Shown piece after piece: positions 3,001-6,000 of a stretch of DNA of 64,000 nucleotides. Numbering within the stretch: position 1 is the stretch's first letter; each line of letters starts with the position of its first letter. Position numbers: made by a program. Where the stretch lies: the IMG/VR virus record IMGVR_UViG_2684623127_000007; one strand, written 5' to 3'. This DNA is from a virus. Its lineage: Duplodnaviria; Heunggongvirae; Uroviricota; Caudoviricetes.

Positions 3001-6000
3001 AGCCGCACTGCCAAACTGAACGCCGACTTCGTCGATGATCAGCAAATCCAGTGACGCATAATGCTCAATGACGTCATCCGCTGTTTTTTCACTGTCATTC
3101 CGCCAGCAGTTTTTCACAGCACGGGTAAGGCGCATCACGTCGGTGATCTCCACACTGGCCAGATAGTTACGGATGATGTGTTTTGCCATTGATACCGCCA
3201 GATGATTTTTCCCGGTACCGCAACTGCCGGTCATAACAAGACTGGTACCGTTCTCCAGCATATCTGGCCAGTTCTCCGCATAGCGGCGACAGGCCGCAAG
3301 ATTTCTGGCTGCGTCAGGATTAACCTCCAGATAATTATCAAACTCGCAGTCCCGAAAACGCAGAGCAATTCCGGCGTTATCAGTCAGTTCTTCCGCCTTG
3401 AGGGACGACAGCTCCATGGTCAAATCGTTGGCCTCAGCTATCAAGCAGTCAGGGCAGCATGAAATTTTTTCTCTGTCCTCGCCATTACGATCGCTCCACA
3501 CCAGAATATGTGTGTGGTATTCGCCATGTTTTTCGCAACACCCGCGCCCTTCACGCATCCAGCAGGAACGATAAGGCCATGGTTTTTCGCCCTTCTGAGC
3601 AAATGCAATCTCTGCCCGTAACTCATCCATCCGCGCCTGTAGTCTTGTTTGTTGTTCACGCAGGTTAAACGTCATCATCGCTGTCACCTCAGAATGTCAA
3701 TTTGTCACTGGATTTACCGAATTTGTCAGACATGGCTCCCAGGCCAGCCAGGACATCGACCTGTCGCTGTCGCCCACCTCCGGGAGCTGCTGGCTGTTGC
3801 CAGAAATCTTCGAAGTGACGATCGGGTCCAAAGAACGTCGACGCCTGCTTCACGAACTGGGTGCCGGTATTTCCTGAGACACGCACCCAGGCAGCATAGC
3901 GTTTCACACCGTTGAGCATGGTTTCTGGTGTCACACCTTCCCTGATTCGGGCTTTCCAGGCTTTGAAGGCTGCTGACTTGGAATTACCACCAGCACGTTT
4001 GGGATATTCCTGCCAGGCCTGTTCAAATTCCGGTGAATATTCCTGTCGGGCAGAACGCGCTGGTGCAGACGCGTCAGCGGATGCGCCAATAGTGTTTTTA
4101 CTCTCTGTAGTATTCTCTGAAGTAATCTCTGTTGTATTCTCTGTAAGATCGAAATTGGTTTTCCCTTCTCCGCGGCGAGTGGTTTCCCGTGTCCGCGGTG
4201 AAGGCTTTCCCTCCTCCGCGAAATTGGGTTTTACAGTTTCCCGAAAACGGGTTTCCCCATTTCGGGAAAACTGATTGTTTTCATTGATAATTTCATTAAG
4301 GCGCTCACAATCTATACGGTAGAACATTTTGTGCTCAAGACGCTTGTTGGTTTCAACCAAAATGCCTCTGGACACAAGATGCTTACGCGCTACAGCCTGT
4401 TGTTCAAATGTAAGTCCAGTTTCGTGTTGTATCTCTTCACGCGTTTTATGTACGCCTTCCGCTGCATGTGCTTTATCCTGCCAGTAAAAAATCTGACCAA
4501 AGAAAATAACAGCGTGCGGACTTCCCATGTATTTAACGAGCCCAGGGTAATAAGCAACCGGATGCCCAAAATCGAGCAGAAGATCAGACGGACGCATAGC
4601 CACCTCCCAGACGCTTAAACATTTTCCCGGACTGAAAAGCCACCAGCGGATAACTCAGGGTATGAGTACGTCCCTGAACCTGGCAGACAACCATCTGGCT
4701 TTCTGTATTGACCAGGCAAACCCGCAGAACGTGGCCGTTGCTGGTGGTGAACCACTGCCCCACACGGGGGCAACGGTTGTATCGGTGATACAGGGAATTA
4801 ACGACGCGGCGAATCATGGGCGCACCTCCCATTGATTACGGCGGAAAGCGGTGTGACTGAGGCTGATTTCTGCCTCATGGAATGCTTCAATGCAGCTCTC
4901 GTAGTACCGCATTGTGCGTAGACTTAACCCAAGCTGAAGCATCATCAGACCATCAAGGGTGATGTAATAACCACGCAGGGAGTCACCGTAGATGTGATAA
5001 GTACCCGGTATGAAATTGCGGGTAAAAAACTCGCGTGAGCAGTTCAGATACTCGATTTTGTCGACGATGTTCTGGTGCATGCGCTTAAAGTGGCAGGCAA
5101 CATGCAGGGAGAAAATAACGGCCTTGCCGTTGACAACTTCAATTTTCAGGTATGGGGAAGTTGGGACTGTAGCCATGATGGCAGCCTCCTTGAGCAGTGA
5201 AAAACTTCCACCACCGGAGCTGCGAAACTCATGGGTGGTGAACTGAACAGGGTTCGCAGTACCGGCGCTCAAGGAAACCGGCGAGCCTTTCGGCTCCCCT
5301 GCCCAGCCCACCATAATTCTGGCGTGCGCGAGCATGGACGATAAAAAAGACGCTGGCGCGTCGTATATCGCCTCGAGCAATTCCGGGCTGCGACCCCCGG
5401 CACCCGCTTTATAAGGTGCGGAGACAGTGTAACGTCCCGAAATTGCAGAATCAATATTTGGTCTTGAAATGATCATATAGCTGCTGATATCTTTAGAACT
5501 GTTCTTGGATGTTTCGGAGCCGTTTTATGCGAAACAGCTCCCCGTTATTGATGTTGAGTGAGCCGGGTTACTCCCGGCTTTTTTTCACCGCTGCCAACCA
5601 ATAACCTGAAATAACCCCATTTTCGGGTGATACCAGCGAGTCCCTCGCGGTTCTGCTTCCTCCATAACCCGATAAAAAGCAGCCATAAACGGTTCCACAG
5701 CAACAATTGCGCGACGTGACAACAATCCGTCCGGCGTCATGAACTCATGTGTGTCTGTAGGAATTTGATAGGCGTTCACCAGATTGCAGCATTTATCATC
5801 TGACAAACCGGTTTTTGCTTTCAGTTGGCGATATCCGGCATAGCCCTCACGAATAGTGCCCTTTTTAATTTGCTCAACTGTTTCAGCAACGTGGATGACT
5901 TTTTCTTCCACCTGAGTGATCCGTTTCTGTTGGCGAACGGCTTCAAGAGCCATCGCGGCAACCATTTCGATTTCGCTCATTGGCTTACGGATCTGTTCTT

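Follow-up and report, generated by a model that had tools for sequence, protein, structure and literature searches.

The stretch of DNA considered here (the window, 64,000 nucleotides; IMG/VR record IMGVR_UViG_2684623127_000007, Caudoviricetes) comes from a Shiga toxin (Stx) prophage of Escherichia coli that produce Shiga toxin (STEC), and the present analysis concerns the interval between its Rha gene and the gene of its O-like replication initiator, where two open reading frames (ORFs), ORF220 and ORF82, are found on the minus strand. The early-right operon in which they lie runs leftward through Cro/YdaS-like, Rha, ORF220, ORF82, O-like initiator, DnaC-like and DnaB genes (Table 1); the initiator, the first gene of the replication module, is treated here as context only. 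The 1.3-kb block covering the interval was found at at least 99% identity in 27 of 5,426 complete E. coli genomes (the first 19 genomes listed being 100% identical), a related copy is present in 374 genomes, and 6 Stx2a phage records are 100% identical to it. RefSeq and the Prokaryotic Genome Annotation Pipeline (PGAP) label the two ORFs 'ash family protein' and 'hypothetical protein', without RNA features. A sequence-only reading of the window had regarded them as unknown genes devoid of recognisable motifs and with weak ribosome-binding sites, which occupy the place of cII in lambdoid phages and may encode a novel lysogeny-establishment function or be cargo inserted into that operon. Both ORFs are present in the early-right operon where cII would be, but the description as motif-less could not be upheld: ORF220 matches the Pfam family Phage_ASH, phrog_995 and two Rfam RNA families, homology search placing it among ordinary phage proteins already known, and ORF82 corresponds to phrog_1153 (E 1e-41). 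The ribosome-binding sites are weak at the longest-ORF starts but not at the internal starts, ATG 5176 and ATG 4817. Codons 1-100 of ORF220 are a known type of RNA immunity cassette, which consists of an isrK/seqA-like decoy RNA with its terminator, a C4/CI-type antisense RNA and a target placed over a Shine-Dalgarno (SD) sequence, and they are followed by two small genes, rha120 and orf77. The locus is a member of the P4 cI / P1-P7 c4 / Gifsy-1 isrK family of RNA immunity cassettes; a regulatory module of the lysis/lysogeny type is very probable, although not in the form of a pair of novel, motif-less proteins.

Table 1. Genes and RNA features at the cassette locus (positions in the window; aa, amino acids).
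Feature	Position	Strand	Details
CI-like S24 repressor	6734-7453	+	divergent from early-right operon
Cro/YdaS-like gene	6374-6631	-	early-right operon, upstream of Rha gene
Rha gene	5585-6328	-	early-right operon, upstream of ORF220
ORF220	4814-5476	-	220 aa; 'ash family protein' frame from gene finders
Putative PisrK-type promoter	5426-5454	-	from sequence; -35 TTGATT 5454-5449, 17-nt spacer, -10 TACACT 5431-5426
isrK-like RNA	5343-5419	-	Rfam RF01394, 56.4 bits (gathering 50), E 4e-10; counterpart of seqA in P4 and of a1b1 in P1
Box a1, in isrK	5393-5388	-	UCGCAG
Box b1, in isrK	5378-5371	-	GCUCGAGG
isrK intrinsic terminator	hairpin 5362-5349, U6 5348-5343	-	found by terminator scan
C4-type antisense RNA	5231-5318	-	Rfam RF01695, 84.4 bits (gathering 45), E 7e-16; equivalent to P4 CI RNA and Gifsy-1 STnc1160
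Conserved AUG in C4 5' strand	5312-5314	-	AUUAUGGUGGG; codon M55 of ORF220
Box b', C4 hairpin-2 loop	5275-5267	-	UCCUUGAGC
Box a', C4 3' single-stranded stretch	5259-5253	-	CUGCGAA
Leader target region	5185-5226	-	boxes a2 and b2
Box a2, in leader	5226-5220	-	UUCGCAG
Box b2, in leader	5195-5187	-	GCUCAAGGA
SD of internal start	5191-5185	-	AAGGAGG; b2 overlaps it; 8 nt before ATG 5176
Internal ATG	5176	-	M101 of ORF220; start of rha120
rha120	4814-5176	-	120 aa (M101-P220 of ORF220); divergent Rha N-terminal (pRha) domain and C-terminal helix
ORF82	4584-4832	-	82 aa; longest-ORF call
orf77	4584-4817	-	77 aa; start ATG 4817-4815; SD GGGAGGT 4830-4824
O-like replication initiator	3689-4603; 3689-4597 (PGAP start 4597)	-	phrog_270 'replication initiation protein', E 3e-66

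Up to codon 100, ORF220 coincides with the putative promoter, the isrK-like RNA, the C4-type RNA and the leader of rha120. The C4 match spans the whole length of the model (1-87), and, as read from sequence, its box a' is complementary to a1 and a2 and its box b' to b1 and to b2 with the SD. The 5' end of isrK, at 5419, lies downstream of the putative promoter, which occupies the same position as TTGACA-17-TATATT before Gifsy-1 isrK and as TTGACT...TATATT in phage F039, and the block ATTGATTCTGC..GGGACGTTACACTGT at this promoter is near-invariant across all early-right-operon loci. The AUG in the 5' strand of C4 is invariant in an 11-locus alignment and in frame with ATG 5176 of the window; the first AUG of Gifsy-1 orf45 (A107 in PMC4825925) maps to it (position 34210 of the Gifsy-1 record, L013). 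Folding of a 255-nt transcript gave a z score of -4.9, with a1 and b1 paired to a' and b' in cis and the SD in a local hairpin, and in this the predicted fold is akin to 'structure A' of Gifsy-1, which has been described as silent in translation.

Comparative analysis was carried out with loci from phiP27, ASU11, F039, P13374, WGPS2, PhiR55_1, 2H10, Stx1_499 and Stx2c_JNE072859. An isrK element followed by a C4 element, in this order, was found in every related locus fetched, as well as in Gifsy-1 and P4. Over 11 loci, all 297 of the 297 cells of the C4 closing stem and two hairpins form standard pairs (100%), with changes on both sides in 12 of 27 pairs, a result reached in none of 500 shuffles, while slid controls paired at 48% or less. 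In the 64 kb, the a..b pattern has exactly three occurrences, namely a1b1, a2b2 and the antisense reading of C4, where 0.03 would be expected by chance. The boxes covary three ways (b' with b1 and b2; a' with a1 and a2), with seven b types and six a types in the 11 loci; this covariation holds across the phages, Gifsy-1 and P4, and the a and b types reassort independently of one another. The b boxes (b', b1 and b2, respectively) read CCTTGAGC, GCTCGAGG and GCTCAAGG in the window, CCTTGATC, GATCAAGG and GATCAAGG in ASU11, TCTTTGGTGA, TCACCAAAG and TCACCAAAGA in WGPS2, TCCGATAAC, GTTATCGG and GTTATCGGA in 2H10, and CTCCGTTGAC, GTCAACGG and GTCAACGGAG in Stx1_499. Mean energies of the C4-leader duplex were -36.6 kcal/mol for cognate and -25.3 kcal/mol for non-cognate combinations (standard deviation 5.2). 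A pattern scan of IMG/VR yielded 93 distinct cassettes, of which 90 contain a':a2 runs and 83 contain b':b2 runs of at least 7 nt, and which together carry 46 b types and 20 a types. Tandem arrays were also observed, in L040 (three copies), L029, L078 and L121, where [isrK-C4-rha120] units with a 656-nt period differ in their a/b specificity.

By homology, the cassette belongs with those of the satellite phage P4 and of Gifsy-1 and, at a greater distance, with the immI region of P1 and P7. In P4, an isrK-like element (8692-8615) and a C4 element (8507-8420) belong to the same Rfam families and stand in the same order, the a' and b' boxes are complementary to downstream boxes, and both P4 and the window show the junction GGAGGCUGCCAUCAUGGCUAC at their first translated gene. 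The P4 'cI protein'/eta frame likewise shares its nucleotides with the RNA and is picked up by the Pfam Ash model that matches ORF220, and the cassette is likewise upstream of replication genes (PLE - seqA - cI RNA - seqC - kil/eta, alpha). P4 CI works mainly via Rho-dependent termination. The two systems differ in that the cassette of the window sits inside the CI/Cro-controlled early-right operon of a lambdoid Stx prophage and carries a Rha-domain protein and ORF77 as cargo, whereas the cargo in P4 is Kil. In the P1/P7 region (c4 - icd - ant1/ant2), after whose c4 the C4 Rfam family is named, the antisense RNA is co-transcribed with its target and recognises it through two boxes, of which a decoy copy, a1b1, lies upstream; the target covers the RBS of the first ORF, whose translation is coupled to that of the effector, and box variation sets specificity (P1 versus P7), features described in PMC8201110, in Rfam (c4-a1b1, RF03163) and, reportedly, by Citron and Schuster in 1990. 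P1 was likened to the window by its described organisation, and it differs in that Ant is a proven C1 antirepressor and in that immI lies away from replication genes. The control of Ant by C4 RNA in P1 immI is documented (PMC8201110).

Gifsy-1 of Salmonella (isrK-orf45(STnc1160)-anrP-isrJ) provides the experimental counterpart. It shares with the window an isrK with terminator, a C4-type RNA and a cargo SD carrying b2, and orf45 starts at the conserved AUG in the C4 5' strand (M55 in the window). The isrK promoter drives the operon, and pairing of a1 with a' yields a translationally silent mRNA (PMC4825925); this pairing was validated by compensatory mutants G28/G31 with C162/C159 (PMC4825925, Hershko-Shalev 2016), which correspond to a1:a' when mapped here. 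Short IsrK activates in trans, a decoy or partner role has been shown experimentally, and translation of orf45 is required for, and coupled to, that of the anti-repressor-like cargo (PMC4825925). IsrK and STnc1160 are abundant in lysogens (PMC7067206). In contrast to the window, the Gifsy-1 cassette is stand-alone, lies downstream of Q, has a strong promoter and has an in-frame stop just before orf45; the end of orf45 overlaps the ATG of anrP, whereas the frame of the window runs straight into the cargo, and AnrP is an ORF6N protein rather than a Rha120 homologue; Gifsy-1 also lacks ORF77, and no replication genes adjoin its cassette. A stand-alone isrK-C4-Rha module with a strong promoter (TTGACT...TATATT) and without ORF77 was also observed in F039 and P13374 (L006/L007, Stx2 phages of O104:H4), where it belongs to the early-left operon and is flanked by restriction-modification genes on one side and kil/bet/exo on the other.

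Recognition of ORF220 as an 'ash' protein stems from residues 16-108, which match Phage_ASH (PF10554; E 7.5e-18, 65.4 bits against a cut-off of 26), while the whole ORF matches phrog_995 (E 6e-95). The same Pfam model matches the obsolete P4 'cI gene product (AA 1-137)', an ORF lying over the CI RNA, and not P4 epsilon, which belongs to another family (PF25738); the Ash 'domain' is therefore read as the conceptual translation of an RNA region. Codon periodicity was assessed by counting variable alignment columns at codon positions 1, 2 and 3. In the frame of ORF220, the cassette region gave counts of 12, 9 and 5; 43, 45 and 43; 44, 47 and 39; and 47, 54 and 50, that is, no third-position bias, whereas such a bias is present in rha120 (2, 3 and 26; 28, 22 and 68), in longer Rha cargo (108, 99 and 158) and in orf77 (19, 18 and 40). 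AlphaFold2 (AF2) modelling of ORF220 from a 57-sequence alignment gave a predicted local distance difference test (pLDDT) of 23-31 for residues 1-110. The mean pLDDT of full-length ORF220 was 38, too poor for a fold search. The Phage_ASH region thus has neither codon-level selection nor a foldable model, and only the openness of its frame is conserved. Variants of 341 aa annotated as 'Ash' (P0001; L017 2555-3109) comprise two cassettes in series within one open frame, with a single cargo.

Rha120, the cargo that begins at ATG 5176, matches phrog_995 (E 2e-57) and phrog_518 'Rha-like' (E 4e-14), it aligns from residue 1 with Rha/Ant genes in 250 phage records by tblastn (E down to 2e-17), and the record of phage F039 annotates a homologous cargo coding sequence from the equivalent of ATG 5176. 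Within ORF220, residues 123-203 score 27.5 bits against Phage_pRha (PF09669; cut-off 29.9). On these profile and alignment matches, Rha120 is a divergent, truncated member of the Rha family, to which its homology is clear, and it is predicted to be a short regulator of the winged-helix type. AnrP was considered as a homologue and rejected (BLASTP E 0.74; a different Pfam domain, ORF6N). Other cassettes carry a Rha protein of 181-215 aa, an ORF6N protein (Gifsy-1 AnrP), a 75-77-aa MANRK protein or a 77-aa helical protein, and it seems that cargo genes are exchanged at this conserved point of junction.

The second gene was shortened from ORF82 to orf77 because a MIRR start is common to all of the full-length ORF82 homologues aligned (28/28), which places the start at ATG 4817 and gives a 77-aa product. 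Its start overlaps the stop codon of rha120 (ATGA) and, through its final 14 nt, orf77 also overlaps the start of the O-like gene (ATG 4597), whose SD (GGGAGGTG at 4608-4601) is of the same kind as that of orf77; rha120, orf77 and the O-like gene are in this way translationally chained. The ratio of nonsynonymous to synonymous changes (pN/pS) of orf77 has a median of 0.42, with 0.05-0.25 in close pairs and 1.05 and 1.36 out of frame, and orf77 is a genuine, conserved gene under purifying selection. In every early-right-operon locus inspected, including two distant metagenomic loci, a C4 cassette lies upstream of it and an O-like/HTH_36 gene directly downstream, and it accompanies 42 of the 93 IMG/VR cassettes. 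AF2 predicts ORF77 (pLDDT 78) as one helix and a small five-stranded beta-barrel, without a helix-turn-helix (HTH), and structure searches returned only generic SH3/Tudor/KOW/DUF1653-like matches. The family is tiny (51 clusters), with 21 representatives among 1.8 billion proteins in an exhaustive HMMER search, mostly relatives or fragments of 38-104 aa, the two weakest being repeat proteins of 536 and 1104 aa. A link to DUF4222 (PF13973) is too weak to claim (phrog_1343 E 0.023; 17% probability and E 0.0015 in hhalign with one DUF4222 sequence; no Pfam match). A role in anti-phage defence was also rejected, as the PADLOC defence-system models gave no match for ORF77, Rha120 or ORF220. A PDB sequence search with both ORFs returned noise only, and a peptide-pattern search of genome contigs with ORF220 found two irrelevant loci, the patterns being too specific. 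Our best guess for ORF77 is an accessory role beside the initiator or the function of a coupling ORF. In ASU11 (L003), an insertion of ~190 nt with a 64-aa ORF separates rha120 from orf77 and breaks the ATGA coupling.

Taken as a whole, the interval can be assigned with good confidence to an RNA immunity cassette homologous to those of P4 and Gifsy-1 (~5454-5185, minus strand), followed by rha120 and orf77. In the proposed working, the weak internal promoter would drive isrK, which carries the target copies a1 and b1 and ends at its terminator, and the C4-type RNA would be processed from read-through or pR transcripts. Pairing of a' and b' with a2 and b2 in the leader would then occlude the SD of rha120 in the lysogen, and lost translation, the isrK terminator and polarity would, on leaky transcripts, silence rha120 and orf77 together with the O-DnaC-DnaB genes chained to them. 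Such a silencing of replication genes would parallel P4, where CI keeps the alpha gene off. With its a1 and b1 boxes, isrK may act as a cis partner or a trans decoy for C4 and so tune the threshold. Upon firing of pR, C4 would be overridden by excess target, by the isrK decoy and possibly by ribosomes crossing the open 'Ash' frame. The cassette probably gates Rha120, ORF77 and the replication genes.

Several points weigh against this assignment. For this phage, RNA control is predicted from sequence, and polarity onto the replication genes is a conjecture. The internal promoter fits 8 of 12 consensus positions and was not reported by the consensus scan, so that it can only be called putative. 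Rha120 falls below the cut-offs of Pfam pRha (29.5 versus 29.9) and NCBIfam TIGR02681 (36.3 versus 45.95), and 'antirepressor' is for Rha120 an analogy only, because AnrP is not homologous to it. The AF2 model is also poor in the C-terminal half of ORF220 (pLDDT 43-63). Lastly, across isrK, spacer, C4 and leader of 56 distinct cassettes with Rha or MANRK cargo, the frame of ORF220 contains no stop triplet, as against 138 and 217 in the other frames, and a longer Ash-Rha isoform may be made. In view of this stop avoidance, pure mis-annotation of ORF220 is too strong a verdict, and the reading of the Ash ORF as purely spurious was softened. The Ash region is instead considered to be overprinted: RNA constraints set its sequence, and ribosomes are evidently meant to be able to cross it. 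The arrangement of eta/kil over cI in P4, reportedly described by Forti et al. in 1999 (reference 40 of PMC10111431), is the precedent. In all 11 of the 11 stand-alone cassettes of the Gifsy type, an in-frame stop is found just upstream of the C4 AUG.

The alternative that survives best is that ORF220 encodes one conventional 220-aa Ash and Rha protein from ATG 5476, the RNA matches being secondary or incidental. The complete avoidance of stops would agree with it, as would the Pfam Ash score above threshold, the calling of this open frame by PGAP in hundreds of genomes and the existence of 646 protein clusters with Ash and pRha; in some phages the frame even reaches at least 100 codons further upstream, its ATG overlapping the stop codon of the previous gene. 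This alternative is nevertheless considered unlikely, as the Ash half lacks the third-position bias that is strong in the Rha half, its variable 'residues' coincide exactly with the RNA boxes and stems that covary, its predicted structure has the low pLDDT given above, and ATG 5476 lacks an SD and is placed before the putative -35 element. Moreover, stand-alone cassettes (F039, P13374, Gifsy-1) have in-frame stops upstream and a cargo annotated from an internal ATG, and in the related loci L008 and L010-L012 the 300 nt upstream have their maximum of substitutions at the wobble position of another frame, in which a real DUF4222 gene is encoded along the final ~180 nt ahead of the -35. This conserved gene (~59 aa; PF13973 E 9e-13; phrog_1343) was observed in L008-L012 at ~60-240 nt before isrK and ends within the isrK-type promoter, its TGA falling in the -35 hexamer; annotated 'Rha/Ash' ORFs of 277-383 aa overlap it in a different frame and are probably N-terminally over-extended.

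A cassette reduced to an inert relic, with rha120 and orf77 simply ordinary early genes transcribed from pR, would account for the consensus scan listing no promoter there and for an internal promoter (TTGATT/TACACT) weaker than that of the stand-alone modules (TTGACA/TATATT). It is judged very unlikely, given that all three box pairs are still perfectly complementary, that the terminator is intact, and that the block is kept in the E. coli genomes and Stx2a phage records listed above. The same weak-promoter block is, in addition, conserved across early-right-operon lineages while the boxes diversify in step, which requires ongoing selection on pairing.

Least probable of all is that ORF77 or Rha120 is a functional analogue of lambda CII, that is, a lysogeny-establishing activator, since the position between cro and O, and the lack of a recognisable CII elsewhere in the early-right operon of the window, are outweighed by the barrel fold of ORF77 without HTH, the presence of a separate CII-like/YmfL gene besides it in both WGPS2 and PhiR55_1, its overlap with the start of O in every locus inspected, and a plus-strand terminator (5560-5587) that would block a pRE-like leftward transcript from the cassette region. 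Genomic position is all that the locus shares with lambda cII, as profile searches at E <=1 returned no lambda-CII-type family (PF05269 included) for either ORF and related phages carry their CII-like/YmfL gene besides the cassette module. In favour of such an analogue, other proteins found at the cII position, such as YdaT, are non-homologous analogues.

Between the Rha stop codon and ORF220, a promoter-like site was also observed on the plus strand (TTGAAA-18-TATCTT with TG, 5464-5493), followed by a strong intrinsic terminator (stem 5560-5580 and T run; window 5464-5590). Together, the two could yield a two-hairpin antisense RNA ~90 nt long (fold z -3.3), and no Rfam family matched this candidate. 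Further Rfam matches in the window are STnc100 (54687-54895), the anti-GcvB small RNA AgvB (54626-54685), two tRNAs (55008-55237), an ALIL pseudoknot (60306-60422), which is a frameshift signal of the IS3 type, and the sok antitoxin RNA (61176-61325).

Both RNA families of the cassette are curated in Rfam, and the GenBank Stx-phage record LC710660 already annotates both RNAs. It appears not to have been stated before that the widespread 'Rha/Ash' proteins beside cI in Stx phages are an RNA cassette with its cargo, that ORF77 links this cassette by chaining to the replication module, or that the Ash frame is stop-free without codon-level selection. A regulatory survey of Stx phages described the Rha/Ash proteins beside cI as DNA-binding proteins without an assigned function, stated that none is known for the Ash domain, and noted that phages of the Rha/Ash type (Eru7) have the widest distribution in Europe (PMC8951638). 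What the Pfam Ash family follows, and with it the PGAP name taken from that family, is an RNA element. A survey of P4 satellites used PF10554 as an epsilon/Ash marker (bioRxiv 10.1101/2021.03.30.437493); as this model matches the cI ORF over the CI RNA and not epsilon (L014 8168-8584 and 7888-8175), that survey in effect detected the CI RNA locus. A further case may be antB2 of P13374 (L007), an annotated anti-repressor coding sequence overlapped by a match to Rfam sRNA-Xcc1 (3523-3606; 79.6 bits, gathering 53) just downstream of the C4-controlled Rha gene, which may be another RNA element annotated as a protein.

A wider interpretation, which we regard as tentative and rather doubtful as a whole, joins, for the common Rha/Ash-type Stx phages, a second, RNA-level layer of immunity that gates the replication module with a ribosome bypass, a combinatorial cross-talk code to which a and b boxes contribute at least 46 x 20 types, and an influence on Stx. 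The cassette would be kept open so that ribosomes on the pR operon override C4 and the isrK terminator, as in P4 PLL/eta, and the a/b code would set cross-repression or cross-activation of Rha and replication genes among co-resident prophages. Were this joint interpretation true, the cassette would influence lysogen stability and the induction of Shiga toxin. For the Rha/Ash-type phages themselves, an Ash part that is an RNA cassette placed before the replication genes would offer a concrete mechanism for differences in lysogen stability and for cross-talk between prophages in STEC.

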